Below are positions 56 through 63,963 of a DNA stretch of 64,000 bases, piece by piece. How positions within the stretch are numbered: position 1 is the stretch's first letter; every line of letters begins with the position of its first letter. Position numbers and translations under genes: made by a program. The notes below the pieces were generated by a model. The model ran no database searches and was not told the DNA's origin. It saw only the letters and a program-made list of their open reading frames with translations. Source of the stretch: Kiritimatiellia bacterium (GTDB taxonomy: Bacteria > Verrucomicrobiota > Kiritimatiellia > CAIKKV01 > CAITUY01); NCBI GenBank assembly GCA_038330175.1, contig JBBQNS010000001.1:15552-79551 (forward strand), given 5' to 3'.

Positions 56-125
56 CTAGCAGCCTGTCGGGCTTCGCGCCTGTGGGGGGGGCTACCGGCG
101 GAGACCGCCGGCTCGAGAATATAAT
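56..125. repeat. Partial copy (left arm only) of a GC-rich MITE/REP-like palindromic element. It carries the core CTACCGGCGGAGACCGCCGGCTCC.
   Basis: Near-identical to 7249–7312 and 49833–49890. The core is itself a mini-hairpin (CCGGCGG-AGA-CCGCCGG). Confidence 0.6.
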
Positions 126-4845: not shown

Positions 4846-5339
4846 ATGTGCAGTTATGGGCTCAAGGGCGCACCGACGGGGAAACGCCCTTGTAAAGAGA
4901 CGCTGAATCATGCCGCGTTGATCAGCCGCGTGAGCGGTCTGGATGTCTATGAACACACACCAGAGGCCTTTCGCCGGGCCTATGCGGCGCTGGGCATTGA
5001 CATCATCAACCGCGTTCCGCTGGACAATGCGACGAAGTGGGTGGGCCACGAGCCGCGCCGCTAGAAGTCGTCGAGGAGCAGTTCGGCCAGACCGGGCACG
5101 TCTTCATCGGTGGTGCGGAAACCGGCCTGTTGACCCGGGGAACGCCAGAACAGGTTCGTAAAATGGTTCAACGGCTGGCACAGTGTACCCGCTACCCTGG
5201 CTTTGTCATCTGCTCGCCGGGGGGGCTGCACGATAATATCCCTATGGAAAATCTCGAGGCCTATTTCGATGCCCGAGTGACACTCGGCGTCACTCCGGAA
5301 AACTGGCGAACGGCGATGAAGTCGGATTTGGCCGAGTGA
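4846..5339 (+). pseudogene. Remnant of a uroporphyrinogen-decarboxylase (URO-D/MtaA-like) family gene. Only the C-terminal ~100 aa are intact in frame, and the upstream part is out of frame.
   Basis: The 5037–5339 product (GTPEQVRKMVQRLAQ...GGLHDNIPMENLEAYFDA) aligns with the C-terminus of the intact URO-D-family gene at 63097–63963. The region is only ~500 bp, versus ~1 kb for a full gene. Confidence 0.5.
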
Positions 5340-6781: not shown

Positions 6782-7060
6782 CTAGGCAAGCGGCAAGGGC
6801 GCCGCTTCTACGGTGGTGCCGTATGTCTGAAACAGAGCCAAGGCTTGGCTCACGTCCAGGCGGTCGGCCGCATCAGCGAAGGGATTTCTCAGGTAGGGCG
6901 AGGTGTCCCTACCGAGCCGGAGCAAGTTGTGGCCATGAAATGCGCCAAAATAGTCAAAGTCTTTTGCGGCGCTTCAGATGGATTGCCCTTTACACCACGG
7001 CTCATCGGGACGATTCGCCCTACCGAATCCTTTTCGAATGGGGGCGTAGATAAGAGCGAT
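6782..7060 (-). pseudogene. Decayed 3' fragment of an AbiEii/AbiGii-family nucleotidyltransferase toxin gene
   Basis: Minus-strand translation gives ...LRNPFADAADRLDVSQALAL..., homologous to the C-terminus (LRRQLADAVDRLDVRQAIADV...QALALW) of the intact AbiEii at 20343–21212. There is ~85 % nucleotide identity over the segment cagagccaaggcttg...cacgtccaggcggtcg[g/a]ccgcatcagcga. An in-frame stop lies upstream. Confidence 0.5.
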
Positions 7061-7131: not shown

Positions 7132-7245
7132 ACAATAAAATACCGACCGCGCATTGTCAGCACATTTCTTTTCTTACAGACCTCAGAGGTATGAGCCCGC
7201 CATTAGCGCAACATGGTTATGTAGCTGACTCAACCACCCGCTACG

Positions 7246-7452
7246 CTAGCAGCCTGTCGGGCTTCGCGCCTGTGGAGGGGCTACCGGCGGAGACCGCCGG
7301 CTCCAGAATATAATTTGCGTCAGCAAACAAGCGTCACGTGCTGCCCATTGCTGAATTCACCGAGGATAGCCCGTTCTTTTAATCTTTGGAGCCGGCGGTC
7401 ACCGCCGGTGGTGGCGGTTGAGTCCGAAGGCTGTGCAAGTCCGACAGGCTGC
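7246..7452. repeat. Complete ~205-bp MITE/REP-like element with ~60-bp imperfect terminal inverted repeats built around the core CTACCGGCGGAGACCGCCGGCTCC / GGAGCCGGCGGT(C/A)(T/C)CGCCGGT(A/G)G
   Basis: Left arm 7249–7306 and right arm 7387–7452 are reverse complements at both termini (GCAGCCTGTCGG...) and in the core. Related copies are at 56–125, 49831–50015 and 62976–63069. Confidence 0.7.
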
Positions 7453-7700
7453 CAGGCGTAGGGCGAACAGTTTGACCCTGTTTTTTTAAGCTCACGGAAC
7501 TGTACAGCGCGGGGCGTTTCGTCTATTTTTCAAGCATGTACATGAAGAACGAAGTGCGCAACCCAGTCTATATCAAGCTGGTAATAGCGATCGCCTTTAT
7601 CCAGCTACTCGCACTGGAGGCCATTTTACCTCCGGCCTTCGGACAAGAGCCTTCCGCCATTCTCGCCACTGTTAACACGCAAACGTAAAATACAGCTAAG

Positions 7701-20342: not shown

Positions 20343-21212
20343 TCAAACCAACACGATTCGGCGCATGACTTCCGTGAAAAAGTCCTTTGACCACAGAGCC
20401 AAGGCTTGCCGATCCCGCACGAAAGGCTCGACGTCAGCAATGGCCTGCCTCACGTCCAGGCGGTCGACCGCATCAGCGAGTTGGCGCCGTAATTCGTCCG
20501 GCGCCAGTGCATGGGCTGCAGTGTAGTCTCCAGATTGGCGCATGCGAAATTCCAGATGCCGGACGTGCAGCTCCGGGTGTCGCCCCGCATACCAAACCAG
20601 ATCGTACCAGTCCCTTCCCTTTACCCGGTTCTTCCATTTCCGACACAGCACGGCATGGATTTTGCCAGCAAAGAGGTCGGGCAAAGAATAGGTGCGTACG
20701 GCAAAGGGGACAGGCTGGAGAACATACTTCGTTTCAGTGGTAAATCCGGGCGGGGGCTTTGTATCCACTTCCAGTTTGATCGTGAGTTGACGTCCTAAGG
20801 GAAGCGTTGCAACCATTTCAGGAGCCGCCTCCAGCACAATCATTTGTTGCACGGTGTCCGTCTTGAGAAATGCCGACTCAATCGCCGAGGCCTTCCGCAC
20901 GTTCGGTTTCTGATCAAACCGCACTGAAAACCCGAAACTACGGAGTTCATTCTGCAGCGCATCTCCGTAGCGGGCCAGTGTGAAATGGGCATCCGGCTTG
21001 AGGAGCGAGAAGTCCAGATCCTCCGAATAGCGGTCAAGCCCGTGAAGGATCCTCAGAGCGGTTCCTCCATAGAAAGCGGCATGCTCAAAAAACTTGCTTC
21101 GCCACAACCCCAGCAGCGCCAGTTCCTGAAGAATCTCGCGAAGGGCATTCAAGTAATCGTCACGGGTCTTGCAGTCGTACCGAGCCAACATCTGCCTAAC
21201 AGCCTCATTCAT
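20343..21212 (-). CDS. abiEii: AbiEii/AbiGii-family nucleotidyltransferase toxin (type IV TA / abortive-infection)
   Basis: Canonical FYGGTALRILHGLDRYSEDLDFSL motif. A 289-aa ORF. Overlaps the upstream abiEi stop by 4 nt. Confidence 0.85.
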   Translation of the reverse strand: MNEAVRQMLARYDCKTRDDYLNALREILQELALLGLWRSKFFEHAAFYGGTALRILHGLDRYSEDLDFSLLKPDAHFTLARYGDALQNELRSFGFSVRFDQKPNVRKASAIESAFLKTDTVQQMIVLEAAPEMVATLPLGRQLTIKLEVDTKPPPGFTTETKYVLQPVPFAVRTYSLPDLFAGKIHAVLCRKWKNRVKGRDWYDLVWYAGRHPELHVRHLEFRMRQSGDYTAAHALAPDELRRQLADAVDRLDVRQAIADVEPFVRDRQALALWSKDFFTEVMRRIVLV

Positions 21213-21859
21213 CGGTGTTTCCTCCGTGTGCGTTGGACGGCTTCAACCAATCCCGCGATCCGGGAGTCGTTATACCCTCCGGCAATTTCCTGCACCGCCT
21301 TCAGATCCAGTTGGGCAAGTCGTTCCCGGTCAATACGCAAATCGTCAAACAAGTAGACGGCATAATCGATGGACGCCGAGGGTTTAAACCGTCGATCCAA
21401 CCAAACGATATCAGCCAATGCCTTTTCAGGTGATGCGATTAGAAAATAATCAGCGCCGCTCTTCGCCTGCGTTAGTCCCATGGCGTAAGGCATCATGGGA
21501 ATCCGGCGATAAGTGAACAAACCGAACGGCGTCTGAAACCGGCGAGTCTTGCCACTGGTGACGCTCGTGACTACGTTTACCCGCTCGGGAATCATCCCAT
21601 GATGACTGAGGGCATACTGTAAACTGATATAGGAAGGCCCGCAAATGAGGTTAGCAAGAAGTTCCCTGCAAACCGGTTGCCGCCGCCACGCCTCTCCGAA
21701 AACATACAACCCCTTCTTGACACGCACAACGGCCCCTGTGGCCATCAAAGAACTGATCTTGTCACGTGGCTTGGAGTACTCCCGCAGAACATCCATCAGC
21801 TGCTGGTAGTCGATGACTTCCCAGTCAATGCTTCGTCTTAGTTCTTCCATTACATTCAC
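21209..21859 (-). CDS. abiEi: AbiEi-family antitoxin / transcriptional regulator
   Basis: 216 aa. Typical AbiEi N-terminal wHTH plus C-terminal domain (GLYVFG...ALSHHGMIPE). Immediately upstream of abiEii with a 4-nt overlap. Confidence 0.8.
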   Translation of the reverse strand: MNVMEELRRSIDWEVIDYQQLMDVLREYSKPRDKISSLMATGAVVRVKKGLYVFGEAWRRQPVCRELLANLICGPSYISLQYALSHHGMIPERVNVVTSVTSGKTRRFQTPFGLFTYRRIPMMPYAMGLTQAKSGADYFLIASPEKALADIVWLDRRFKPSASIDYAVYLFDDLRIDRERLAQLDLKAVQEIAGGYNDSRIAGLVEAVQRTRRKHR

Positions 21860-30577: not shown

Positions 30578-30854
30578 TCTATGTTCTCCATTATTTTTAA
30601 AAGCTGTTTTTGAGGGAGGCCGCAAACCGGTCAACTTTCGCCGGCAAATAATCGCCCCAAAGTTATTCGATACGCCTAAACGGACGTACTTGTACCAAGC
30701 GTCACCAGTCGATGCAAACGCATATATACGCACAAAAAGATTAAAAATATTTGAACAGAAGCACGGTAGAGCCCGCAAAGGGCATCTACGGCGCGAACGC
30801 CGCAGCTGCATATTATTGAAAATCAAAACCGTTGGTATTATCGCCGTAGGCGTA

Positions 30855-30896
30855 AAACCTATTCCCTTCGCGATCTTCGCGTGCTTCTGTTCAAAC
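30855..30896. repeat. Copy of a ~45-bp conserved block AAACC(T/C)ATTCCC(T/C)T(T/C)GCGATCTTCG(C/T)GTGCTTCTGTTCAAA
   Basis: Near-identical to 50021–50066. The 3' part of that copy is in turn shared with 61106–61165. Confidence 0.5.
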
Positions 30897-30967
30897 TCTT
30901 TTCTTTCCGGCACGCCAAACGTCGTCAGTAAAGTGATCGAAGAAATTTGTCATACACCCGTCTTCAG

Positions 30968-40509: not shown

Positions 40510-40599
40510 CACGCGGCTCAGCAAGCTTCGCCCACCAAAAAATATGATCCATAAGGTGGAGACAATTCTTCTGGAGGGCGAAGCTTGCTGAGCCGCGTG
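40510..40599. repeat. 24-bp perfect inverted repeat (CACGCGGCTCAGCAAGCTTCGCCC ... GGGCGAAGCTTGCTGAGCCGCGTG) with a 42-nt loop containing a nested CCACC/GGTGG stem
   Basis: Exact reverse complementarity is seen directly in the sequence. Not followed by a T-tract, so not a canonical terminator. It lies in the 330-bp gap between mtfA and the large glycoside hydrolase gene. Confidence 0.6.
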
Positions 40600-43700: not shown

Positions 43701-43890
43701 CACGGCGGACTTGCAGATCCAACTCATCGGGCATCGGCGCAATTCGCATGGGCCTTTCCATCTGACTGAAAAGTGGCCCAGCTGGACTGGACCGGGCGAA
43801 TTCGTCCGGAGCGGCGATGGATGGCTTGACGGCTATCAACTTGTGCCCTGTGGCCTGATGGCCGAACCTGAACTCATCGTGCGAAGCTGA
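40753..43890 (+). CDS. Large glycoside hydrolase, probably GH106-like (alpha-L-rhamnosidase-type); the family is assigned from memory
   Basis: N-terminus EYRGAPFWAWNGKLEPEELRRQIRIMQQMGLGGFFMHSRIGL...WLYDEDRWPSGAAGG recalls the Glyco_hydro_106 N-terminal consensus. A 1045-aa ORF with no signal peptide. Confidence 0.55.
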   Translation: MKKSLLDVFKNPSAEYRGAPFWAWNGKLEPEELRRQIRIMQQMGLGGFFMHSRIGLSTPYLSKDWFNCIDACVDEAKKQGMSAWLYDEDRWPSGAAGGLVTKNPEYRMRSLKVHTLDKSTDLKWTQDTLAAFVARIEGTSVYDVRQVSKGKTAPKLASGEKLIVFVIELQQGSNWYNGFTYLDTLNHKAVKAFIKVTHEAYKKHQGKEFGRTIPGMFTDEPNHGNKLGHDNNTGDPGGLPWTGALPKTFQKRYGYNLIPHLVELVFDVEGNGIRPARLHYHDCVTHLYVDAFNRQIFDWCAKNKLTYTGHQLEEDFLSSQTNMVGSCLRTYEYMQAPGMDLLTERWRVFNTAKQVSSGARQFGAKWRLTETYGCTGWDFPFAGHKALGDWQVALGINLRCQHLAWYTMEGEAKRDYPASIFYQSPWWQLYPKVEDYFARIHTVMTRGEEVRDLLVVHPVESMWMQVKIGWRGNPATHHFDNQHTKLTESLLAQHLDFDFGDEEHIGRLGKVAKQSDGPVFRLGDATYKAVLVPPLKTMRRTTLALLRKFKAAGGTVVFAGTPSAYVDAVASTDVVDFATTCPAVPPNGSEVGAPLEKTCRRISIADAAGKEISPALYLLREDRDTFFLFICNTSEDYTATQEYIMNQPQARDRTLAFSDVRIRGLAGCKGVPVELNPETGAPTAVDFTRSANGLEIRTSLPTLGSRLFLIPKVATGLPLAAAPILKTLRTNKLSGKKWDITLSESPNLVLDRPRHKIGDEPWQNAEEILRVDRKVRASMGIPHRSGDMIQPWARTPNSNPKRTQVSLAYTFDCQALPTGDLFVALEQPQTFRVSLNGVPVSQDAQCGWWVDLSMHKLPLDPAVLRLGQNELVLECDYVETHPGLEIVYLLGNFGTQAHGTNVGITALPTSLQLGDWVPQGLTFYSGSVSYRRRVELKAGKGERLFIRVPEYRGVAVRVLVDGKEAGIVAWEPNEVEITGLANGTADLQIQLIGHRRNSHGPFHLTEKWPSWTGPGEFVRSGDGWLDGYQLVPCGLMAEPELIVRS

Positions 43891-43943
43891 TTGCAGAGCA
43901 CTTACCTTGCAGTGGCGGGCGTTTTGGATATGATGTTTTCATC

Positions 43944-45626
43944 ATGACGATGAAAGATCAAATCAAGACGCTTGCCACTGAACTGGGGTATCAGGTTTGT
44001 GGCATTACGGGTATCCAGCCGTTTGAAAAATATCAAACGGCTCTCAAAGAACGCTCTCTGCGCTTTCCAGAAGCCGCCCACCTCTATCAGGAGATGGAGC
44101 AGCGTATCGATCCCACCACTAACGCACCTTGGGCAAAGTCCATCATCGTCGCGGTCCGCCGTTATGGAAAATACGACCTACCCGACTCCATCACCGGACA
44201 CATCGGGCGGAACTATCTTTGTGATCGTCGCATCAAGGGGTGTCCCGATAACGCCCTGCCGAAACGCATGAAGCAGGGTCTCATCGCGCTGGGACACCGC
44301 GTCAAAATAGGAGGCGTGCCCTGTCGAGAAGCCGCCGTCCGCGCAGGAATCGTTAAAATCGGGCGAAATGGATTTGCCTATGCCGACGGGTGTGGTTCCT
44401 GGCTGAATATTGAGGCTTGGCTGATTGATGCTGAGCTTGAGCCCGACGCGCCATCCACCCAGAAGGCCCCCTGCCCCCCGGGATGTCGAGCCTGTCTGGA
44501 TGCCTGCCGAACGGGCGCCCTTGCCGAACCCTATGTTATGAATATGAAGCGCTGCATCGCTCGCTTGACCTACGGCGAAGAGGCGCCCATTCCCACTGAC
44601 TTGTGGAATAAAATGGGGCCTTGGATTTATGGATGTGATGACTGCCAGACTGCCTGCCCCATGAATCATGGAAAATGGAGCCCGCTGGAGCCTGCCCCTT
44701 GGATTAAGGACATTGCCGATCGTTTAACGCCAGAGGCGCTCGCCTCCATGGATTTGGATACCTACAAAAAAATCATCTATCCTCTTTTCTGGTACATTTC
44801 CGAAAATGATGTGGAACGTTGGCACCGAAATGCAAAACGCGTGATTGAATTGGCTAAAGAGCACCCACCCGCTCTACCTCGCACGGCGACGTACTTCGAA
44901 GGGACGCGCCCTTTGCTGTTTGAAAACTTATCCCTGCCCTCGGAACTACGCGTCATGGTGCTCGCCCCACATCCCGACGACTTTGATGCTATCAGCGTTA
45001 CCCTTCGGTATCTACACCAGAACGGTAACCCCATTAACCTGGTGGTACTGACTTCAGGTGACAGTGGCGTCGAGGATGACTACGCCAACGCACACCTGCC
45101 GTTGACCAAAGCCGAAATCCGGGAAATTGAACAAAAAGCCAGCTGCCAGTTTTTCGGCCGACCTGCGGAGCATGTCCAATTTCTTCGGTTCGCCACCGAC
45201 GCGATGGGAAGTATGCTGGCGGACACCGAGAATCTCGAAAGTCTCCGCACCTCCATTCTGGCGCTCCGCCCGGATATTGTCTTTTTGCCACACGGAAACG
45301 ACACCAATGCCGATCACCGGCGCACGTATGCCTTTCTCCAAAAATGTGTTCAGCAGGAAAAATTATCACTGGTCGCCTGCTTAAATAGGGATCCCAAGAC
45401 CATCGCCATGCAGGAAGATATGTTGACACTATTTACGGCAGAAACTGCGGAATGGAAAAAAGAATTGCTACGATTCCATGATTCCCAACAGCAACGCAAC
45501 CTTCGCACGCGTGGACATGGCTTCGATGACCGGGTGCTTAAAAGCAATCTACGCTCTTTGCCAGCAGGGCAGGATTCATTACCCTTTGCCGAAATTTTCG
45601 AACTGGAATTCTTTTCCCACGAATAA
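43944..45626 (+). CDS. Fusion protein: N-terminal epoxyqueuosine-reductase (QueG)-like double-[4Fe-4S] domain joined to a C-terminal PIG-L/LmbE deacetylase domain
   Basis: N-terminus MTMKDQIKTLATELGYQVCGI (QueG/DUF1730-like), then CPPGCRACLDACRTGAL...CDDCQTACPMNHG ferredoxin motifs. C-terminus VMVLAPHPDDFD...HGNDTNADHRRT is a LmbE signature. Confidence 0.6.
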   Translation: MTMKDQIKTLATELGYQVCGITGIQPFEKYQTALKERSLRFPEAAHLYQEMEQRIDPTTNAPWAKSIIVAVRRYGKYDLPDSITGHIGRNYLCDRRIKGCPDNALPKRMKQGLIALGHRVKIGGVPCREAAVRAGIVKIGRNGFAYADGCGSWLNIEAWLIDAELEPDAPSTQKAPCPPGCRACLDACRTGALAEPYVMNMKRCIARLTYGEEAPIPTDLWNKMGPWIYGCDDCQTACPMNHGKWSPLEPAPWIKDIADRLTPEALASMDLDTYKKIIYPLFWYISENDVERWHRNAKRVIELAKEHPPALPRTATYFEGTRPLLFENLSLPSELRVMVLAPHPDDFDAISVTLRYLHQNGNPINLVVLTSGDSGVEDDYANAHLPLTKAEIREIEQKASCQFFGRPAEHVQFLRFATDAMGSMLADTENLESLRTSILALRPDIVFLPHGNDTNADHRRTYAFLQKCVQQEKLSLVACLNRDPKTIAMQEDMLTLFTAETAEWKKELLRFHDSQQQRNLRTRGHGFDDRVLKSNLRSLPAGQDSLPFAEIFELEFFSHE

Positions 45627-45638
45627 CAATAAGAGAAT

Positions 45639-46523
45639 TTACAGGCCGTTCGCGCGCCGGGCAGACTCCACAGTGTTGTAAAGCAACATGGTGATGGTCA
45701 TGGGCCCCACCCCACCGGGGACCGGCGTGATCATGCTGGCTTTAGCCATGCATCCATCAAAATCAGCATCGCCTACGAGTCGGAAGCCCGCCTTCTTAGT
45801 GGAATCTTCAATCCGATTTACCCCGACATCAATGACAACCGCGCCTTCGCGAATCATATCGGCGGTCACGGTATTAGGGCGCCCCGCCGCCGCAATCACA
45901 ATATCCGCCTGGCGGGTATACTGAGCAATATTCTTAGTTTTCGTATGACAGACGGTCACCGTCGCATTACCCAGTGGGCCTTTTGCCATCAGCATATTGG
46001 CCAGTGGCTTGCCGACAATATTGCTGCGTCCAACAATCACCACATACGCGCCTTCTATTTTCACGCCACTACGCGCCAACATCTGCAGGACGCCATGGGG
46101 TGTGCAGGGCAGAAAGGCTTTTTCGCCCACCAACATACGCCCGACATTGGTAGGATGGAACCCATCCACATCTTTCTCGGGATCGATCGTCAGCAATACT
46201 TCACTTTCATTCAGATGCTTAGGTAAAGGTAATTGAACCAGAATACCGTTGATGTGGGGATCCGCATTCATTTTTCGGATCAGAGCCAGCAGTTGCGCCT
46301 GCGAGGCATCGACCGGAAGGCGGTTGTCATCGGAGAAAATCCCGATTTCGTGACACGCCTTTTCCTTGGCCGTTACATAGGACCGTGACGCAGGATCATC
46401 CCCAACCAAGATCACCCCGAGACCGGGCACAACGCCCTTCTCTTTTAGTTGCTTAATTTCCACAGTCAATTCTTCGCGAATTTGCCGGGCAATCTCTTTA
46501 CCATCAATAATCTTTGCGGTCAT
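45639..46523 (-). CDS. folD: Bifunctional methylenetetrahydrofolate dehydrogenase / methenyl-THF cyclohydrolase
   Basis: Full-length FolD similarity (AKIIDGKEIA..., GILVQLPLPKH, VVIVGRSNIVGKP). Start at 46523. Confidence 0.9.
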   Translation of the reverse strand: MTAKIIDGKEIARQIREELTVEIKQLKEKGVVPGLGVILVGDDPASRSYVTAKEKACHEIGIFSDDNRLPVDASQAQLLALIRKMNADPHINGILVQLPLPKHLNESEVLLTIDPEKDVDGFHPTNVGRMLVGEKAFLPCTPHGVLQMLARSGVKIEGAYVVIVGRSNIVGKPLANMLMAKGPLGNATVTVCHTKTKNIAQYTRQADIVIAAAGRPNTVTADMIREGAVVIDVGVNRIEDSTKKAGFRLVGDADFDGCMAKASMITPVPGGVGPMTITMLLYNTVESARRANGL

Positions 46524-46552
46524 GGTGTCCTTTGCTTGTGGCGCAAAACCGT

Positions 46553-48325
46553 TCAAAACAAGCCTTTTACCCGACCGGTTTCGACATCAATATCGATGTT
46601 CGCGAAAGCCGGCTCCGAGGCCGTGCCCGGCATCAACTTGATTTCACCAGCCACGGGCACCACGAAACCAGCTCCTCGATAGACCAGCATATCCCTAATC
46701 GGCAGAGTCCACCCTTTTGGCCGCCCCTTAAGCGTGGGATCATGCGAAAGGCTCAAATGCGTTTTTACCATACAGGTTCCCATGGCCGCAGTAGCTGGAT
46801 CCGCCTCTAATTTGAGAGCTTTATCCAGTGCCACCTCGCTATAGCTCACCCCGTCAGCCCCGTAGATCTCCTTGGCAATTAATTCAATCCGCTGGCGGAG
46901 CGGGGTCTTGAGATCATAAAGAAATTTGAAGTCATTCTTCTCATTAGCCGCCGTCACCACCACTTCAGCCAGTTCGCGGGCACCTTCGCCCCCCTTGAGC
47001 CAATGCTGAGAGAGCGCCACATAAGCTCCGTGCTGCTCCGCCACTTTGCGCACCAACGCCACTTCCGCCGCCGTATCCGTGTAAAAACCATTGATGCATA
47101 CCACCGGGCGCACACCGGACTTTTTGACAATTTCAATATGCGCGACCAGGTTCTCACAACCCTTTTCAAGTAAACCGAGGTTCTCGCGAATATACGCCTC
47201 ATCCAATTTGGCGCCGGGTTTAACTTCCGGACCGCCGCCATGCATCTTCAGCGCCCGGATCGTTGCCACCACGACCACCGCACTCGGCTTCAACCCCGAG
47301 AACCGGCACTTCAGGTTCCAGAATTTTTCAAACCCAATATCCGCAGCAAAACCGCTTTCGGTGACATGGTATTCCGCCAATCGGGTTCCAATTTCATCAG
47401 CGATAATGGAACTCTGTCCAATGGCAATATTAGCAAACGGACCGGCATGCACAAAGATCGGCTGACCTTCCACCGTTTGAACTAGGGTGGGATTAATGGC
47501 ATCCACCATCCAGGCGGCCATCGCTCCATCCACCTTCAAATCCGCCGTAGTGATTTCATTGCCATCCCTATCACAGGCCAGAACCATCCGCCCCAACCGT
47601 TGACGCAAATCCTTGAGGTCTTTGGAAACGGCCAAAATAGCCATGACTTCACTGCCCACGGAAATCTGAAAACCGGAGTCCATTTCGAGACCATCCATCT
47701 TGCCGCCGCGTCCAATTGTGATATTTCGCAAGCTCTGGGCGCAGAAATCCATGCACCACTTCACACTCACCCGTGCCGGATCCACATTCAACCGCCGGAT
47801 CCCCGTTCTGGCCAGACGGGCATCATCGTAGTTTTTCTCGTGTTGCATCCGGGAGGTCAAGGCCACCATCGCTAGATTATGCGCATTGGTAATGGAATCG
47901 ATATCACCCGTCATGCGGATGGAGAAAGGTGCCAGGGGAATACACTGCGAAATACCGCCCCCTGCCGCAGAGCCTTTGATGTTAAACGTAGGGCCGCCGC
48001 TGGGCTGACGAATCGCACCGGTCACCGATTTGCCTAGCACCGACAAGCCTTCAATCAGCCCGATCGTCGTGGTGGTTTTCCCCTCGCCCAATGGCGTAGG
48101 GGTGATGGCGGTGACATCGATGTATTTACCCACCGGCCTGGAACCAATCCGCTCCATCACGGCACGCTGATCCACCTTCGCCAACTGCCGCCCCATCATG
48201 ATCACTTCGTTTTCGTGAAGGCCCAACTCGGAGGCCAACTGCATGACCGGCTTCATGGTTTGCTCAGCCGCTTCCGCAATTTCCCAGTCTTTCATCTTTG
48301 TCGGGTCTAATTTCAATCGCGTCAT
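46553..48325 (-). CDS. fhs: Formate--tetrahydrofolate ligase
   Basis: A 590-aa ORF with the P-loop [15 protein letters not shown] and full-length Fhs similarity. Confidence 0.9.
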
Positions 48326-48351
48326 ACAATTTCTCCTGAAACTCGATTAGC

Positions 48352-48591
48352 TCATTCCACCAATTTGCCTTCACGATGGGCCAGAATAAATTCCACGCCG
48401 AATAGGTCCTCACCCGTCAACAACGCCTGGGCAAGCTTAAATGACTCAGACGCTGTATCCACCGCCGTCAAAATTTTCCCGTTCATTTGAAGCGGATCCA
48501 AGATCCCACTGTCGCCGCCCGCTTCCACCACCATCCAGGTAAAGACCTGACGGAAGCCTGAGAGGCCCCCCTTCTCCTCAATTTTCACCAT
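48352..48591 (-). CDS. Small hypothetical protein (~80 aa) overlapping the 3' end of the upstream nuclease gene
   Basis: Overlaps the end of 48578–49165 by 14 nt. The start at 48591 (MVKIEEKGG) is preferred over the longer ORF-track call. No domain recognised. Confidence 0.3.
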   Translation of the reverse strand: MVKIEEKGGLSGFRQVFTWMVVEAGGDSGILDPLQMNGKILTAVDTASESFKLAQALLTGEDLFGVEFILAHREGKLVE

Positions 48592-49165
48592 GCGCTTGCT
48601 CGTATTTTTTGATCGCGTCCCTGATTTTAGCGGCCTCTTCGTAGTTTTCCTTGGCGATCGCTTTATCCAACTTGGCCTTAAGTTGTTCCAGTGGAGGCCC
48701 AGCTGGCTTAGGCGCCGCTGCCACATGCGCTTGATCTCCCGTTTTTGCGGGAGCCTCTTGCGCTTTCGCCTCATCCAGTAACACCCCTACCTTATTCATT
48801 ACCTCCGCGGTAACATAAAGCGGAGTAGAACATCTCAACCCGAGGGCAATGGCATCACTAGGGCGCGCATCAATTTCAGTTTCAACCCCGTCATGCTCCA
48901 GCACCAGCACCGCATAAAATGTGTTTTCGATCACCTCTTTGACCACCACGCGTTTCAACCGGCATTCCATGCAGTCCAAGACGTTTTTAAACAAATCGTG
49001 GGTCAAAGGCCGGGGAATCTGCACCTTTTCGAGCCACAACGCTATCGATTGAGCTTCCGTTCCCCCAATAAAAATGGGCAACGTCCGAGGATCAGGATCC
49101 CCCTTGAGTAGAATCACAAATCCAAGATTTGATAACGACAAACCAGCTACTTTGACATGAACCAT
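48578..49165 (-). CDS. Bifunctional nuclease (BFN/DUF151) domain protein with a C-terminal UVR motif
   Basis: BFN-like core (FIGGTEAQSIALWLEK...RPLTHDL) and a C-terminal UvrB/UvrC-type UVR helix (EQLKAKLDKAIAKENYEEAAKIRDAIKKYE). Confidence 0.6.
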   Translation of the reverse strand: MVHVKVAGLSLSNLGFVILLKGDPDPRTLPIFIGGTEAQSIALWLEKVQIPRPLTHDLFKNVLDCMECRLKRVVVKEVIENTFYAVLVLEHDGVETEIDARPSDAIALGLRCSTPLYVTAEVMNKVGVLLDEAKAQEAPAKTGDQAHVAAAPKPAGPPLEQLKAKLDKAIAKENYEEAAKIRDAIKKYEQAHGEN

Positions 49166-49313
49166 AAATCACCTCTCTATAATCATTTATCTTAACACGC
49201 TTCACCGCACCGTGAAAAGGAGGAAGAGTTCATCAGATACAATGGGGTGCATCTGCGATCATTGGTGTTTTCAATGGATGTCGAACAGCATATCGTTTAT
49301 ATATTCTCCACTC

Positions 49314-49832
49314 ATGAAGATTATCGCCTGTGACCAACGCCACGTACCGCAAATTAGGACCATTTTTAATGATGCCATCTTGAATTCTACGGTACTCTGG
49401 GAATATGAGCCCCGCAGCCTGAAAACAGTCACGGACTGGTTTGAATCGAAGCGAAAGGGATCCTTTCCTGTAATTGGAATGGAAAATGATTTGGGTGAAT
49501 TCATGGGATTTGCCAGTTATGGAACTTTTCGTGACCGGCCGGGATATAAATACACTGCCGAACATTCCGTATACGTCGACCAACGGTTCCGCGGAAAGGG
49601 AATTGGCTCTCTCTTGATGAAGGAGTTGATCGTAAGCGCCCAATCTCACGATCTCCACACCCTGATTGGAGCCATTGATACCACCAATGAAGCCAGCATC
49701 GCGCTCCATCGCAGCCTTGGCTTTGAATACTGTGGCAGCATCAAACAAGCTGGCTTTAAGTTCGGGCGCTGGCTGGACATGGTCTTTTATCAGTTGATCT
49801 TGCCTACTCCGGCCCGCCCCATCGCTGGCTAA
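49314..49832 (+). CDS. GNAT-family N-acetyltransferase (phosphinothricin/PAT-like)
   Basis: GNAT motif A QRFRGKGIGSLLMKELI. ATG at 49314 (MKIIACDQ). Its TAA stop lies at the first bases of the adjacent repeat element. Confidence 0.75.
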   Translation: MKIIACDQRHVPQIRTIFNDAILNSTVLWEYEPRSLKTVTDWFESKRKGSFPVIGMENDLGEFMGFASYGTFRDRPGYKYTAEHSVYVDQRFRGKGIGSLLMKELIVSAQSHDLHTLIGAIDTTNEASIALHRSLGFEYCGSIKQAGFKFGRWLDMVFYQLILPTPARPIAG

Positions 49833-50015
49833 CAGCCTGTCGGGCTGCGCACCCTCGTAAGGCTACCGGCGGAGACCGCCGGCTCCAGAATATAGCTCGC
49901 GTCGGTAATCAAGCGCCATGTGCTTCACATTGCTTAATCCACCGAGGATAGCCCCGGATCTCCATCTTTGGAGCCGGCGGTCTCCGCCGGTAGTGAAGGT
50001 CTAGGCTGAAGGCGG
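49831..50015. repeat. MITE/REP-like element copy (left arm, diverged centre, and a truncated right arm)
   Basis: CAGCCTGTCGGG...CTACCGGCGGAGACCGCCGGCTCCAGAATAT...TTGGAGCCGGCGGTCTCCGCCGGTAG. The centre is ~75 % identical to the 7246–7452 copy. Confidence 0.7.
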
Positions 50016-50020
50016 TTGCA

Positions 50021-50100
50021 AACCCATTCCCCCTTTGCGATCTTCGTGTGCTTCTGTTCAAAAATCCTGCATTTTAGCTAACCGGTTGCAAATAAATAGG
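50021..50100 (+). promoter_or_regulatory. Conserved ~80-bp block upstream of the ECF sigma operon. Its 5' half matches 30855–30896 and its 3' half (...TTCAAAA-TCCTGCATT...GGTTGCAAATAAA) matches 61106–61165, upstream of the chitinase gene.
   Basis: Direct sequence similarity among three loci. Two of them sit ~100–140 bp upstream of plus-strand genes, suggesting a shared promoter or operator (inference). Confidence 0.4.
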
Positions 50101-50198
50101 ACACCGAAATTATCGTGTGCCCAAGAAATACCGACTGGAATATAAAATTTGTAATATATCGTCGCTTCCGCGTAATAGGAACTAGAGGGCTACATCCA

Positions 50199-50756
50199 GT
50201 GAACGAAGAAGAACTAGATCTACTTGTCGAACGGATCCAAAACGGTGACCGGGAGGCCTTTGGCGAAGTAGTGTTTGCCATCCGTAAAGAACTGCGGATT
50301 TTCCTCTCTGCCCACGCTTGCTCCGTCGATATGGTCGAAGAAGTACTCCAACACACCTTGGTGGTATGTTACGAAAACATCGCGAAATATGAACGACGCG
50401 GCACCTTTCTTTCCTGGACCAAGGGCATTGCCCGTAATCTCATGCTCAAAGAGCTTAAGGCCCGCTCCCGCTATGTGGCGCCCGGAGAGGACGAATTGGA
50501 TCGGATCGTTCTCGATGCCTCCATGCAATCGATCAAAGCCTTGGATCGTGAAGAAGTTTACGTGGAACACCTGCGCCATTGCCTCACTAAACTGTCCGAT
50601 GACTCACGCCAACTTGTGCAACAACGGTATTTCGACCGGTTATCAATCCGGGAGCTTGCGGAACGAAATCACCGAACCGAAACCTGGGTTGCTGTCGCCT
50701 TGTTCCGTGTGCGAGACATTCTGAGAGATTGCATGATGAGAGAGGTGGCCTCATGA
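50199..50756 (+). CDS. ECF-family RNA polymerase sigma factor (sigma-70 region 2 + region 4)
   Basis: ELDLLVERIQNGDREAFGEVV (region 2 start) and a C-terminal RQLVQQRYFDRLSIRELAERNHRTETWV HTH (region 4). Probable GTG start at 50199, with a GAGGG RBS 9 nt upstream. Confidence 0.8.
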   Translation: MNEEELDLLVERIQNGDREAFGEVVFAIRKELRIFLSAHACSVDMVEEVLQHTLVVCYENIAKYERRGTFLSWTKGIARNLMLKELKARSRYVAPGEDELDRIVLDASMQSIKALDREEVYVEHLRHCLTKLSDDSRQLVQQRYFDRLSIRELAERNHRTETWVAVALFRVRDILRDCMMREVAS

Positions 50757-52561
50757 ATGAACAAGAATTCATCCTGTTGATGGAAGAATACCTTGAGGGA
50801 AGCATTACCCCCCAAGGCCGGTTTGCCCTCAAGACCGAAGTATTAAAAAATCCCACACGCCGCCAGCTCTTTGAAAACCAGGCGCGGCAACATGTGCGGC
50901 TCCATGCCCAATCCAGCCGGATCGATTTCTCAGAATCTCAACGTATCGCCGTCATGGTCATGGATATTGCAGATAAGCAGAAGGAACCCAATGCCTTCAT
51001 GGAACTGATCCGCAAAAAAACCTTCCGTGAACGGGCCTCGTTGATTCTGAAAGGACTGCGAGCCGCTCCGGGCACGCCCGCCCACCGCGCAGCCAAAGCC
51101 GAATTAATTCGAATATTCGGCCCCGCAAGCCTTTCAGTAGTCGTCAATGTCGCCGCCCTACTCCTGCTCCTGTTCTGGGTTCCCTACGTCCTCCCCCCTC
51201 CGCCCGGCGACAGCAGAGCAGATACCGAAGGCGTCGTCATCAATCTGGGTGATCCCCAGGCGGACAATTCGAAACCACAAGCTGATAATAATCCTGATAA
51301 TTCCCAATCGGACTCACACCCTGATAAGGGCTCGATATCGGCCCCAAATATCGGCACTGCGCAAGGCCCAGTCGGCCCCATCATTCCGGGGTACGATGGG
51401 CCCCCGACGGACATCATGGATATAGCCCCCCCGGGAAAACCAAATAATGATGGCGACCTCCTGGCTATGACCCCGAAAACCAAGGGGATTACAGCGTCCC
51501 TATTTCCCGGTTCCCGCGGTAATCGCGACAGAAAGGATCGTGACCGTATTCTTATTGAACAAAAGGCCACCAAAACGGAGATAGCCGTAGTGAAAGCCCT
51601 CAAGTGGCTCAAAGCCAAACAATTACCGGATGGAAGCTGGCCGGGCCAGGATACTACGGCCATGACCGGCTTGGCGTTGCTCACTTACCTGGCACATAAC
51701 GAAATGCCGACATCACCCCAATTCGGTGACACCGTAACGCACGGCCTGCAAAGCCTACTTAAAAATCAAAGCAAGGATGGCGCCTTTTCACAAAACGTCT
51801 ATGCGCACGCCATTGCCACCTACGCCATTGCGGAAGCGTATACCATGACGCGCATCATGGATCTTAAAGCTCCTCTCGAAAAAGCGGTCAGCGTCATCAT
51901 TAAAGGTCAGCAAACTAATGGCGGTTTCGATTATAACTACCTGAAAGGATCACGGTTCGATACCTCCGTCACGGGTTGGCAAATTCAAGCGCTAAAGGCC
52001 GCGCGTACCGCAGAGCCCGACATGGACGGTTTGGAAGAAGCGCTCGCCCGCTCCACACGATTCCTTCTCTCGGATGCCTTTGCCCGAGATGGAAGCGGCT
52101 TTGTCTATGAGGGAAAAAACGGGGTCGTGTCCGCCAGCGGCGGCAAACAGAGCATGACAGGGGTCGGCACCCTCTGCCTGCAAATGCTTGGCAAAAATAC
52201 TTCAGCCCCGGTCAGGGCAGGACTTAAAGTGCTTCAGAATGCCGAACTCGAATGGGTGCCTGATGGCAAAGCCAATGTCTATACCAGCTATTATGTAGCG
52301 CAAGCCAAGTTTCAGAGCGGGAATCAACCCGAGTGGATGCGCTGGAACCTCAACATGCAAAAAATCCTACTGGCCAGGCAGGATAAAGACGGACACTGGG
52401 AGCAAGGCGACTTCGATAATGGCTCCCATGTCTATACCACCACACTTTGCGTATTGATGCTGGAAGTGTATTATCGGTATCTTCCTTCTGATGCACATCC
52501 AATCGAACAAAAACCAGCAGGAAAGATCGTCTCAGGAGATGTCCTCATTGACGTCCTCTAA
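50753..52561 (+). CDS. Anti-sigma factor-like membrane protein with a C-terminal prenyltransferase/squalene-oxidase-repeat (terpenoid cyclase / alpha-alpha toroid) domain
   Basis: ATGA overlap with the sigma gene stop. The N-terminal cytoplasmic helix EEYLEGSITPQGRFAL is anti-sigma-like. There is one TM segment (VVNVAALLLLLFWVPYVL) and a Pro/Asp-rich linker. C-terminal repeats KWLKAKQLPDGSWPG...NQSKDGAFS...GQQTNGGFDYNY. Confidence 0.65.
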   Translation: MNEQEFILLMEEYLEGSITPQGRFALKTEVLKNPTRRQLFENQARQHVRLHAQSSRIDFSESQRIAVMVMDIADKQKEPNAFMELIRKKTFRERASLILKGLRAAPGTPAHRAAKAELIRIFGPASLSVVVNVAALLLLLFWVPYVLPPPPGDSRADTEGVVINLGDPQADNSKPQADNNPDNSQSDSHPDKGSISAPNIGTAQGPVGPIIPGYDGPPTDIMDIAPPGKPNNDGDLLAMTPKTKGITASLFPGSRGNRDRKDRDRILIEQKATKTEIAVVKALKWLKAKQLPDGSWPGQDTTAMTGLALLTYLAHNEMPTSPQFGDTVTHGLQSLLKNQSKDGAFSQNVYAHAIATYAIAEAYTMTRIMDLKAPLEKAVSVIIKGQQTNGGFDYNYLKGSRFDTSVTGWQIQALKAARTAEPDMDGLEEALARSTRFLLSDAFARDGSGFVYEGKNGVVSASGGKQSMTGVGTLCLQMLGKNTSAPVRAGLKVLQNAELEWVPDGKANVYTSYYVAQAKFQSGNQPEWMRWNLNMQKILLARQDKDGHWEQGDFDNGSHVYTTTLCVLMLEVYYRYLPSDAHPIEQKPAGKIVSGDVLIDVL

Positions 52562-53486
52562 CCCCCATGCCCCTAGCGGCCTGAAAGGCTGGGTTTCGCT
52601 ATTTCGCCCACCTAATCTATTTACGGTACCCGGCGATCCCCTGATCGGCGCCCTTCTGGCTGCCTTGGCGCTGAAAACGGTTCCGCAGTGGAATGCCATT
52701 TATGCCTTAATGGGTGCTGCCCTCGCCTTCTATGCCAGTGGACTGCTGGCGAATGATTTCTTTGACCGCGCGATTGACGCCCAAGAACGGCCTAATCGGC
52801 CCATTCCATCTGGTGCCGTGAATGCCAACGCGGTGAAATGGGTTGCCATTTTACTCTCACTCGTAGGCTTGAGCCTGACTCTCCCTGCGGGGCGTCTTGC
52901 CAGCGAGATCGGACTCCTTTTAACGCTGAACGCCTGGTTCTATGACGCGTATGGAAAAAAGATGGCATGGCTCGCCCCCTTCTCCATGGGATTATGCCGA
53001 GGTTTGAGCGTATTGTTGGGCGCTGCCGCACTGGGCCTCAACGGCCTCACCTCCCCAGCCGTGCTGATTGCCACCCTTTTCATGACCCTTTACATCGCAC
53101 TTATCACAGTCATCGCTCGACACGAAGCTGATCCCGACGCCGCCCCGATTCCCACCGGAATTCGCTGGGGAATCCCGGTGGTTTTGATCCTGTGGCTCAC
53201 CCTCCTCCTGATCAGACCGGGGGCATTAGAATTCCAGTGGAAAAGCCTGGCCACCCTAGTGGCCGCCATGTCTATTCTCTGGTCCATTCTATGGACAGCC
53301 CAGATGAAACCCCATGCCTCCCCTCGCCTCATTCAGGCGGCGGTAGGCGGCCTGATCCGCGGACTGCTCTTTACCCAAGCAGCACTCTGCGCCTCCTATG
53401 GAGCAACGGGTGAAGGCTTCGCCTTCCTCCTGCTCTTCCTGTTCCCGGTAAGTGGCTGGATCGGAAGATGGTTTTATGGTAGTTAA
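52539..53486 (+). CDS. eboC: UbiA-family prenyltransferase (EboC-like)
   Basis: UbiA motifs LLANDFFDRAIDAQERPNRPIPSG and 8–9 TM helices. First of four tightly coupled genes. Confidence 0.7.
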   Translation: MSSLTSSNPHAPSGLKGWVSLFRPPNLFTVPGDPLIGALLAALALKTVPQWNAIYALMGAALAFYASGLLANDFFDRAIDAQERPNRPIPSGAVNANAVKWVAILLSLVGLSLTLPAGRLASEIGLLLTLNAWFYDAYGKKMAWLAPFSMGLCRGLSVLLGAAALGLNGLTSPAVLIATLFMTLYIALITVIARHEADPDAAPIPTGIRWGIPVVLILWLTLLLIRPGALEFQWKSLATLVAAMSILWSILWTAQMKPHASPRLIQAAVGGLIRGLLFTQAALCASYGATGEGFAFLLLFLFPVSGWIGRWFYGS

Positions 53487-53493
53487 GGCTCAC

Positions 53494-54792
53494 ATGAAAA
53501 AGCGACTGGTCATCATTCAAGTGGCAGGATTGGGGCACAATTTCCTAACCGAATCTCTCGGCACACAGTGGAAGGGGCTCACCTTTAAACCGCTCAAGAG
53601 CGTCTTTCCCGCGCTGACCTGCACCGCTCAGGCCACCTTCCGAACGGCCGCACCTATAGCAAACCACGGGATGGTCGCTAATGGGCGGTACCATCGTGAA
53701 CTCCGAAAGCCATTGCTCTGGGAACAATCCTGCGATTTGGTCTCCGGCCCACGAATATGGGACTCTTTTCGCCAAAGCGGAAAACGCGTGGCCCTGCTTT
53801 TCTGGCAGCAATCGTTGGGCGAAGCCGTGGATATTATCCTTTCGCCCTCCCCCATCCACAAACATGGTGGCGGCATGGTCCAAAGCGTATACAGCCAACC
53901 TGCGGGCCTTTATGAATCTCTCTGTAAATCCATCAAACGCACGTTCCCTCTGCACCGTTATTGGGGGCCCCTCGCCTCGCCAGCCTCGTCTGACTGGATT
54001 GCACGCGCGACGGCGCTTCTTCTGGCTGACCGCTCCCAAGCGCCTGATCTTTGCCTGACTTATCTACCCGCCCTCGATTACGATCTCCAGCGGCATGGTC
54101 CCAAACACCCGTCCGCCCAGCGCTCTTTGACCGCCTTGCTTGCGCAGCTTTCACTCATCCGGAACGTCGCCGATGAAAATGGGTACGATCTCATCATCTT
54201 CGGTGATTACGCCATCGGGCATTCCTCTCAAGCCATCTTCCCCAACCGCGCCTTACTTCACGCTGATTTATTCAAAACCCGCACCGTCGAAGGCCGACTC
54301 TATCCGGACTTCCACGCCAGCCAATCTTTTGCGATGGTCGACCATGAGGTTGCCCACGTCTACCTGCGCCACCCCGCCGATCTCGAAGCCACGCGCACCG
54401 TCTTGGCAACCCTTGAGGGAGTTGAAACCATCATGGATGCCCATGCCCAACAGCTTGCCGGAATCGCCCACCCGCATGGGGGCGAATTGGTGCTGGTAGC
54501 CAAACCAGGGTACTGGTTTGCCTACCCGTGGTGGTCCGACAAAAAACAGGCCCCCGACTTTGCCACGCATGTGGATATCCATAACAAGCCCGGCTATGAT
54601 CCTTGCGAACTGTTCTTCGGTTGGCCTCCCATTTCTGTGAGTCAAGATACAAGCCGAATCAAGGGCTCACATGGTACCACGGGGAACGAGCGCGCGGCCA
54701 CGTGGGCCAGCACGTGCTCCTTTAAGGGTACCCCAGCTAATTTGCAGGAACTCGCCCAACTCGTGAAGCAACACCTGGAGACATTATCGTGA
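53494..54792 (+). CDS. eboF: Alkaline-phosphatase-superfamily nucleotide pyrophosphatase/phosphodiesterase (EboF-like)
   Basis: AP-superfamily type-I phosphodiesterase-like pattern (LVIIQVAGLGHNF...LTCTAQATFRT...YLPALDYDLQRHG). Start at 53494 (MKKRLVII). Confidence 0.65.
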   Translation: MKKRLVIIQVAGLGHNFLTESLGTQWKGLTFKPLKSVFPALTCTAQATFRTAAPIANHGMVANGRYHRELRKPLLWEQSCDLVSGPRIWDSFRQSGKRVALLFWQQSLGEAVDIILSPSPIHKHGGGMVQSVYSQPAGLYESLCKSIKRTFPLHRYWGPLASPASSDWIARATALLLADRSQAPDLCLTYLPALDYDLQRHGPKHPSAQRSLTALLAQLSLIRNVADENGYDLIIFGDYAIGHSSQAIFPNRALLHADLFKTRTVEGRLYPDFHASQSFAMVDHEVAHVYLRHPADLEATRTVLATLEGVETIMDAHAQQLAGIAHPHGGELVLVAKPGYWFAYPWWSDKKQAPDFATHVDIHNKPGYDPCELFFGWPPISVSQDTSRIKGSHGTTGNERAATWASTCSFKGTPANLQELAQLVKQHLETLS

Positions 54793-61043: not shown

Positions 61044-61105
61044 AAATGATTAAACCTTCAACCCTTAACGGGTGTGACTGAAATCGATGGGTGCATTATC
61101 CGTTC

Positions 61106-61165
61106 TGACCTTCGCGTGTTTTCTTTCAAAATCCTTGCATTCCCGCTGAGGGGTTGCAAATAAAA
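61106..61165 (+). promoter_or_regulatory. Copy of the conserved upstream block (CTTCGCGTGTTTTCTTTCAAAATCCTTGCATTCCCGCTGAGGGGTTGCAAATAAA), ~140 bp upstream of the GH18 gene
   Basis: ~75 % identity to 50042–50097, which lies upstream of the ECF sigma operon. Confidence 0.4.
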
Positions 61166-61301
61166 AAACCAACGATCACAAATGCGCCCAAACAGGGATG
61201 CCAGAATTTACCCAAAATAGCTAGGCACGCTAACTGCTACTTAACTTATTCATGCGAAACAGGGAGTTATTTCAGGGCAACATTATCAAAGGAAAGAATC
61301 A

Positions 61302-62951: not shown

Positions 62952-62975
62952 GGCGGTTTTGCAAAGCCTTCGGCC

Positions 62976-63069
62976 TAGACAGTCACTACCGGCGGAGACC
63001 GCCGGCTCCAAAAATTGAGAACTGGAGCTATCCTATTATATTCTGGAGCCGGCGGTCCCCGCCGGTAGC
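62976..63069. repeat. Short (~95-bp) variant of the MITE/REP-like element: CTACCGGCGGAGACCGCCGGCTCC - 35-nt loop - GGAGCCGGCGGTCCCCGCCGGTAG
   Basis: Same core palindrome as the other three copies. Located between the convergent ends of the GH18 gene and the URO-D-family gene. Confidence 0.65.
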
Positions 63070-63096
63070 CTTCCTTGGGTGCGAAACCAAACAGGC

Positions 63097-63963
63097 TCAT
63101 AGCCCTTCCACGTCCGGGGCCAATTTCCCATACTCACGAAACGCCGTGCACATGGCGGCGAGTTTCTCTGGGGTGTGCTGAATCACATCCGGCGTGCTGT
63201 AGGCCATGCTGACCAACCCGCCCTGGTGGTTGCCTAGGGTGGCGATCATCCGGCGGACATAGGCACGAATGTCATCGAGCGAGCCATTGATCATCGTCTG
63301 CTGGATATCGACGGGACACCAAAAAGCCAATTTTCCGCCGACAGCAGCATCGAGATTTTCTAAACCCATATTTTCCTGCTGGTCCTGCTGGATCACGTCT
63401 AGACCCCATGCCTGCAGCCGCGGCAACAGGGGCAGGATATAGCCGCAAGAGTGGAGCCAGACATCCATGCCGAGATCATGGGCCAGCTTCCAATTCTCCA
63501 TGTAGTGGGGCATGAAGAATTCCTCAATCAGATCGAAGCCCACCATCATACGATCCTGCAGACCCCAGTCATCGTAGCCCATAACACCGTCGCAACCGGC
63601 GGCATGCAGGCTGCGGATGGAGTCACGCTGGGCATCAGCGAGGCGCGCAATGAGAGCCTTGGTCTCGTCCGGATTCTCATAGTAGGCAATGAACAGATTG
63701 TCCAAGCCGAGCAGATTGTGGGCACCTTCATTGAGGCTCGAGACGGGCATGACGCCAAGGCAGTACTTGGGGTTAGCCGACGCATTATTGGCGCGGATGG
63801 CCTCGCGAGCGCCCTCGAAGTGCCGGGGGTTATTCTGGTCGGGAATGACGTATTCGGCTTGGCGGGCAATATCGGGAATCGGCAATGAGGTCTTCTCGCC
63901 ATGGTTCCCCTCGCCCACGGGCCGAGTCCAGGTCGTGCCCCATGCATCGATTTTGTGCTCCAA
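63097..63963 (-). CDS. Uroporphyrinogen-decarboxylase (URO-D)/MtaA-like family protein. The N-terminus probably lies beyond the window edge.
   Basis: C-terminal conservation typical of the URO-D fold (DIRAYVRRMIATLGNHQGGLVSMAYSTPDVIQHTPEKL). Only 288 aa are in the window, versus ~340 expected. Confidence 0.65.
   Translation of the reverse strand: MEHKIDAWGTTWTRPVGEGNHGEKTSLPIPDIARQAEYVIPDQNNPRHFEGAREAIRANNASANPKYCLGVMPVSSLNEGAHNLLGLDNLFIAYYENPDETKALIARLADAQRDSIRSLHAAGCDGVMGYDDWGLQDRMMVGFDLIEEFFMPHYMENWKLAHDLGMDVWLHSCGYILPLLPRLQAWGLDVIQQDQQENMGLENLDAAVGGKLAFWCPVDIQQTMINGSLDDIRAYVRRMIATLGNHQGGLVSMAYSTPDVIQHTPEKLAAMCTAFREYGKLAPDVEGL

Follow-up and report, generated by a model that had tools for sequence, protein, structure and literature searches.

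Scattered through the window, as the whole 64,000-nucleotide (64-kb) stretch of DNA analysed here will be called (G+C 54%), are four GC-rich palindromic loci, which raise the question of what kind of repeat they represent and by what means it was dispersed. The earlier note had described them as a family of MITE- or REP-like elements sharing a 24-nt core, CTACCGGCGGAGACCGCCGGCTCC. With up to three mismatches allowed, this core is found seven times in the window, at four loci (elements A to D), against zero matches expected by chance from dinucleotide-preserving shuffles, which bears out the common core. The four loci are very probably copies of a REPIN-type element, a class of small, non-coding hairpins that are dispersed by a REP-associated tyrosine transposase (RAYT), built of pairs of REP hairpins in inverted orientation with a 35–83-nt spacer and lineage-specific outer arms.

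The REP unit has the consensus 5'-TGGAG-CCGGCGG-NNN-CCGCCGG-TAG-3' and its palindrome comprises a 7-bp stem closed by a 3–4-nt loop. Elements B, C and D are inverted doublets, and A is a half element, a copy decayed to a single REP. Alignment by blastn gave identities of 96% over 70 nt between A and B, 81% over 197 nt between B and C, and 85–86% between C and D, the latter lying in the opposite orientation with ~45 nt of its centre missing; no copy beyond the four loci was detected in the window. Since the homology of the arms and the spacer reaches far beyond the core, the repeated unit is the whole 150–220-nt composite and not the hairpin alone. The fold, which the earlier note had proposed as a check, agrees with this anatomy: B, C and D each form one long hairpin, with z-scores of −6.7 to −8.4 relative to shuffled sequences, the values for B being −129 kcal/mol as RNA (z −8.4) and −68 kcal/mol as DNA (z −7.1). 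Element B had been taken as the complete copy, at 7246-7452, with a centre of ~75 bp. It is indeed a full doublet, but its pairing runs somewhat further at both ends and its cores are 83 nt apart, the same spacing as in C, with 35 nt in D. The left ends of all four copies start with CTA(G/A/T), and the outermost ends are paired only in B (CTAGCAGCCTGTCGG / CCGACAGGCTGCCAG). In A, B and D the left REP is immediately followed by the string AGAATATAAT (116-125, 7305-7314 and 63035-63044), in which a perfect TATAAT is embedded; this string marks the breakpoint of both the truncation of A and the internal deletion of D, and no matching −35 element was found.

Positions of the four elements and of their seven REP units in the window; each REP row starts at a match to the 24-nt core
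Feature	Position	Strand	Description
Element A, half element	56..125	+	Left arm 56-91, one REP 92-115, first 10 nt of spacer
Element B, full long-form REPIN-like doublet	7241..7462	+	Paired region about 7241-7462
Parts of B			Left arm 7246-7280, REP 7281-7304, spacer 7305-7387, inverted REP 7388-7411, right arm 7412-7455
Element C, doublet	49829..50024	+	REP 49863-49886, 83-nt spacer, inverted REP 49970-49993
Element D, doublet	62955..63102	-	35-nt spacer; REPs 63045-63068, 62986-63009
REP of A	92..115	+	CTACCGGCGGAGACCGCCGGCTCG; opposite strand reads 5'-cGAG-hairpin-TAG
Left REP of B	7281..7304	+	Core match
Right REP of B	7388..7411	-	2 mismatches: loop TCA, tail TGG
Left REP of C	49863..49886	+	Core match
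Right REP of C	49970..49993	-	Core match
REP of D, right in D's own orientation	62986..63009	+	Core match
REP of D, left in D's own orientation	63045..63068	-	Loop GGG

All copies, seven units at four loci within the 64 kb, are extragenic according to the Pfam annotation of their neighbours. Element A is located 260 nt upstream of a GntR-family gene, and B is found between the genes of an FAD-dependent oxidoreductase and a TPR protein. Element C begins at the stop codon (TAA, 49830-49832) of a GNAT gene, which encodes a phosphinothricin/YncA-like acetyltransferase; its left terminus, CTAA, includes this stop, and an ECF sigma factor gene lies downstream. Element D fills the whole 145-nt gap between the convergent GH18 and URO-D genes and touches both stop codons, the one of URO-D being contained in the left-arm terminus CTATGAGCC. 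The location of these two copies at gene ends, as originally proposed, was thus confirmed. The accompanying claim, that the elements lie near gene remnants, stood only in part: there is a remnant of an AbiEii C-terminus near B (6836-6892, minus strand), merely 19 aa long, but no URO-D fragment, since the gene adjoining D is truncated only by the window boundary and shows 84% identity to homologues of 330–350 aa over 97–99% of the length, among them records named Lentisphaeria and Victivallales. The role in mediating rearrangements, which had been derived from this one 19-aa remnant and the unfound URO-D fragment, is consequently not supported. An intact AbiEi/AbiEii-like pair is present at 20343-21859 on the minus strand, 13 kb from the AbiEii remnant. 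A tRNA/tmRNA scan found no such genes in the window.

The position of C and D against stop codons, together with stable GC-rich stems that carry compensatory changes and with the reported effects of REPs on mRNA stability and termination in other bacteria (PMC3733652), is what would be expected if the hairpins were host regulatory elements, terminators or mRNA 3'-end stabilisers, selected at gene ends and not spread as mobile DNA. This reading is unlikely. The hairpins are followed by CTCCAG or TAG and none by a T-run, so they are not canonical intrinsic (Rho-independent) terminators; a consensus terminator scan calls none, and the suggestion that they act as bidirectional terminators is not supported. 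Furthermore, A and B lie upstream of genes and not at 3' ends, what is repeated is the whole 150–220 nt with arms and spacer included, the site works without the element in two syntenic relatives, and the arrays around RAYT genes described below would be left unexplained.

Other assignments were also considered and rejected. There is no consensus promoter in B or C, and a TTGAGA/TATATT match (10/12) is found in the spacer of D only, so no promoter is common to the copies. Integron attC sites were discarded because the copies are 7–43 kb apart, in mixed orientation and with no GTTRRRY cores visible at their ends, and a CRISPR reading was ruled out on anatomy. No Rfam 15 family matched the window at its gathering score, and around B, at E-values up to 10, only chance-level hits appeared.

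The same hairpin is found in other genomes. The exact core occurs at 28 loci, 15 of them from a scan with one genome per species and 13 from metagenomes, and it recurs in at least ten other genomes; every named record bearing it is a MAG of the PVC group (Lentisphaerae, Victivallales, Verrucomicrobiota, Kiritimatiellae). One MAG, bin-7679, accounts for six contigs among the 15 genome loci, with only 8 exact cores found. The distribution of the REP, taken with the Lentisphaeria and Victivallales names of the URO-D homologues, suggests a PVC bacterium as the source of the window. Scans of viral contigs and of plasmids gave no core, which argues that the element is not phage- or plasmid-borne. 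Between genomes only the core, 25–34 nt, is common, and an nhmmer search with the arms and spacer of the window copies gave no significant match in the fetched loci. This last result, and the fact that only four loci are visible in the window's own genome, are compatible with a local segmental duplication or a chance similarity with no family beyond the window, an explanation of vanishingly small probability in view of the zero matches expected by chance, the unrelated flanks of the four copies and the presence of the core in the other genomes. The sole match to the outer ends is an exact 15-mer, CTAGCAACCTGTCGG, at the edge of a REPIN of bin-7679 (L015, 3227-3369), which is identical to the left-arm terminus CTAGCARCCTGTCGG of the window copies; this REPIN is bracketed as GAAG-TA ... 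TA-GAAG. With this shared 15-mer there is a hint that the long form acquired its outer ends before the window's lineage arose.

The REP-bearing genomes mostly carry a short doublet, composed of CTACCGGCGGRGACCGCCGGCTCCAG, 10–30 nt of intervening sequence and CTGGAGCCGGCCGTCCCGGCCGGTAG. Tag-in and tag-out pairings are both seen, as well as some direct tandems, in which two or three REP units stand head to tail (L001, about 5100-5215; L016, about 2100-2210); such tandems are reportedly uncommon among REP families. In the stem of the partner hairpin a G-C of the first is replaced by C-G, which keeps a perfect hairpin within each arm, and a third stem variant, with C-G changed to A-T, is present in L030. 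Pairing was examined on 14 distinct 25-mers gathered without requiring complementarity. Across these variants 99% of the stem cells are paired, two of the seven stem pairs have compensatory, double-sided changes, and the observed covariation was reached by no shuffle. The stem pairing and the covariation indicate that the local hairpin is constrained, and not only the long-range doublet. In several PVC-group genomes, therefore, the REP hairpin is conserved as a unit under structural constraint; that the core is itself a hairpin had been stated in the earlier note. Regarding the flanks of the hairpin, TGGAG is found on its 5' side in 65 of 68 oriented units, and TAG on its 3' side in 52 of 68.

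A link to a possible enzyme came from one of the bin-7679 contigs (L012). A motif screen of all loci revealed there a 158-aa ORF with HUH and Y..NPV motifs, which has REP doublets directly upstream (784-956) and downstream (1489-1701). The ORF matches the NCBIfam model NF047646, ‘REP-associated tyrosine transposase’, over positions 11-145 of 146 with an E-value of 3.7e-18 and a score of 65.8 bits, short of the curated threshold of 80; its match to Pfam Y1_Tnp is weak. Its best match in the PDB is 4ER8, the E. coli TnpA_REP (E 6e-5), with the HUH and Y..NPV motifs aligned. A database search returned 151 homologues, several of which carry the JGI name ‘REP element-mobilizing transposase RayT’, and the contigs of four of them were fetched (L029, L030, L031 and L033). 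The two closer homologues, with 67% (L029) and 62% (L030) identity, have arrays of the two L012 hairpins on both sides, so that arrays of the same REPs flank a RAYT-type gene in three related MAGs. The two more distant ones, with 52% (L031) and 47% (L033, from a Pontiellaceae genome) identity, are accompanied by different hairpins with the same 5' tag, CTGGAG(G). As judged from these sequences, there is a clear co-variation of the hairpin stem with the RAYT protein, while the tag stays conserved. In three genomes, then, a small HUH/Y1 gene of RAYT type has the hairpin on either side, a REP-RAYT-REP layout known for RAYTs as the REPtron (PMC3733652, PMC5581495).

A profile HMM made from 120 RAYT homologues found no RAYT in the 64-kb window, in agreement with the earlier statement that it contains no transposase, and a cognate enzyme is accordingly assumed in the window's organism. 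Applied to the 28 REP-bearing loci that had been retrieved by pattern, the family profile HMM detected a RAYT in L012 only; one in 28 fits a rare, roughly single-copy gene with dispersed repeats. Two side observations concern these surroundings. The RAYT gene of L030 has an AbiEii gene and a PIN/PhdYeFM pair as neighbours. In the window, a solitary inverted repeat at 40510-40599, with 31-nt arms that are 94% complementary and a 28-nt loop, lies ~150 nt upstream of a gene for 1045 aa at 40753; beside its loop is CTGGAGG, the tag of the REPs around the L031 and L033 RAYT genes, and no second copy of this repeat is present in the window or the fetched loci.

The site of element C could be compared with related contigs. 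The gene order BFN/UVR, GNAT, ECF sigma factor and downstream genes is common to the window and to two relatives, one (L034-L036) with a GNAT 74% identical to that of the window and the other (L037) collinear with window positions 43878-55930 at 75–82% nucleotide identity. In L034, the GNAT stop adjoins the conserved leader TTTGTAATAT and the intergenic region is 52 bp long; in L037, 51 bp of non-aligned sequence separate two aligned blocks. The interval between GNAT and ECF sigma in the window, with element C inside, measures 315–333 bp, and the comparison with the 51–52 bp of L034 and L037 shows that the C site is empty in them. Element C thus lies in DNA that is absent from two syntenic relatives, which have no REP core within 15–20 kb. 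This presence/absence polymorphism refers to one site only; an orthologous site for D was sought via URO-D homologues and not found, the neighbouring genes being different.

The extra DNA at C holds a second repeat of ~100 nt, unrelated to the REPs, which follows the element at 50031-50128, so that it cannot be attributed to one clean insertion event. Further copies of this repeat, whose core is CGTGCTTCTGTTCAAA...GGTTGCAAATAAA, are found on the plus strand at 61099-61195 and about 30864-30960, with an inverted partial copy at 30743-30765. It is intergenic, placed upstream of the ECF sigma gene and of GH18, and L034 and L037 lack it in their syntenic intergenic region; a promoter/leader module is one possible identity, a further small mobile element another. 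Just before the leader TTTGTAATAT, the sequence ATACCGACTGGAATATAAAA (50127-50147) resembles the 3' end of the L034 GNAT gene, CATCCGACTGAAGGATAA, stop included, and the homology of the window GNAT to L037 fades 17 nt before its stop (49816-49832). On sequence grounds, inserted sequence may have displaced the ancestral end of the GNAT gene and taken its place, in which case the last 5–6 codons might stem from the element. Here the evidence conflicts, as the current C-terminus, PARPIAG, is still in keeping with the family pattern PxxPx[DE]G. The alignment with L034 and L037 also suggests that the ECF sigma gene (50115-50756) starts at a GTG near 50199 and not at the first in-frame start, 50115.

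The earlier note had left room for a MITE, with terminal inverted repeats and target-site duplications. On such an account the long form of ~200 nt, ending in CTAG-CAGCCTGTCGG, would be moved by a DDE transposase, for instance an IS630-like (TA targets) or IS5-like (CTAG targets) enzyme, and the REP hairpins would be mere body of the element. Element B does carry an outer inverted repeat of 12–19 nt (CTAGCAGCCTGTCGGGCTT / AAGTCCGACAGGCTGCCAG), CTA(G/A/T) opens all four left ends, and the L015 REPIN ends in the shared 15-mer with TA/GAAG bracketing on both sides. Nevertheless, the outer ends match in B only, those on the right of C and D being different, and neither a consistent target-site duplication nor, in the window or the fetched loci, a DDE transposase or a parent IS with these ends was seen; between genomes, moreover, conservation is limited to the REP core, and it is with RAYT genes that this core is associated. 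A TIR-type MITE is for these reasons quite improbable, and no target-site signature could be defined from the available copies. The other half of the proposal, a REP-like non-autonomous family served by a RAYT/IS200-type enzyme encoded elsewhere, is upheld by the hairpins flanking RAYT-like genes in three MAGs, the dispersed extragenic copies and the empty C site in two relatives.

For the favoured REPIN-type reading, a mechanism can be outlined by analogy with E. coli TnpA_REP and the REPINs of Pseudomonas. A single-copy RAYT, encoded outside the window, would bind the hairpin in its folded, single-stranded state along with the TGGAG tag on its 5' side; the AG of this tag would guide cleavage at a CT dinucleotide, which is usually located just upstream (CTGGAG). 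The enzyme would then cleave and join at CT sites, and a copy of the whole ~150–220-nt doublet would be placed at an extragenic site, in many cases directly after a stop codon. The homology among the copies starts at C-TA(G/A/T), which fits cleavage and joining at CT. In E. coli, binding and cleavage by TnpA_REP depend on the GTAG found on the 5' side of the hairpin foot, and A3 and G4 of this tetranucleotide were proposed to specify the CT cleavage site (PMC3479197). In the present units TGGAG takes the place of the canonical GTAG as the 5' tag, with AG common to both, and GTAG sits at the 3' foot, in 52 of the 68 oriented units. Effects on transcripts, such as 3'-end protection or the damping of translation near stop codons, would be secondary, and a stabilisation of mRNA by the hairpins is possible. 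Liang, Rudd and Deutscher are said to have found in 2015 that REPs placed no more than about 15 nt from a stop codon can lower expression in E. coli, a damping that could be relevant to C and D.

Nearly all work on REP/REPIN-RAYT systems has, to our knowledge, concerned Proteobacteria. Among the closest known systems, the E. coli REP/BIME system with TnpA_REP (RayT; PDB 4ER8), resembles the present one in its GC-rich hairpin of ~25–35 nt with an unpaired tag at the 5' foot, in two hairpin variants that alternate in inverted orientation, and in repeats flanking the RAYT gene as a REPtron, with aligned HUH and catalytic-Tyr motifs. It differs in the tag, GTAG instead of TGGAG with only AG in common, and in the stem, which here is perfect and only 7 bp long with a 3–4-nt loop; the similarity between the proteins is remote, and the host here is probably a member of the PVC group and not an enterobacterium. 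The Pseudomonas fluorescens REPINs (Bertels & Rainey 2011, PMC3116915) and the Group 2/3 RAYTs (PMC5581495) share with the window copies an inverted doublet replicated with its spacer and some flank, singlets that are decayed doublets, and extragenic copies, and their RAYT is encoded elsewhere, typically in about one copy per genome (PMC3116915, PMC5581495). Unlike the P. fluorescens REPINs, the elements described here have a longer spacer (83 nt) and outer arms of 35–45 nt. Within the PVC group, the GTAG REPs of Opitutus terrae and Rhodopirellula baltica (Di Nocera et al. 2013, PMC3733652), which could be compared by description only, also form dimers and are often found downstream of or inside genes, whereas TGGAG departs from the GTAG rule in both tag polarity and sequence. 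IS200/IS605 ends and the non-autonomous PATEs likewise combine a Y1 HUH enzyme with subterminal single-stranded hairpins and a 5' guide tetranucleotide (PMC3479197). In IS200/IS605, in contrast, the hairpins of the two ends point the same way and enclose the transposase, with which they move as a single unit; here, inverted doublets are dispersed without the gene.

The window repeats very probably belong to a REP/REPIN-RAYT system, a kind in which REPs, dimers and REPtrons are already well known: hairpin-foot tags, inverted dimers with 20–100-bp spacers, sites downstream of genes, REP-flanked RAYTs and REPs of the PVC group have all been described (PMC3733652, PMC3479197, PMC5581495). They do not constitute a new kind of element, and nothing suggests an unusual function. 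A more speculative extension, which we regard as doubtful, is that the TGGAG hairpin, together with the corresponding RAYT clade, represents a separate REP-RAYT lineage, either vertical and old or repeatedly exchanged, with a 25-nt REP almost invariant across at least two PVC classes; that the CTA(G) terminus of the long form marks C^T cleavage and joining points; and that insertion at the last codons may rewrite C-termini, the displaced GNAT 3' end at 50127-50147 being a possible example. If the CTA(G) terminus were the C^T junction, it would provide a natural, sequence-defined unit for testing the copying of REPINs by RAYTs. What the analysis documents is a REP-RAYT system in uncultured PVC bacteria with a non-canonical tag, TGGAG, that keeps the putative cleavage-guiding AG. 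This tag, together with the co-variation of RAYT and hairpin stem, makes the system a useful comparative point on substrate recognition by RAYTs, and the result helps the annotation of intergenic repeats in PVC MAGs.
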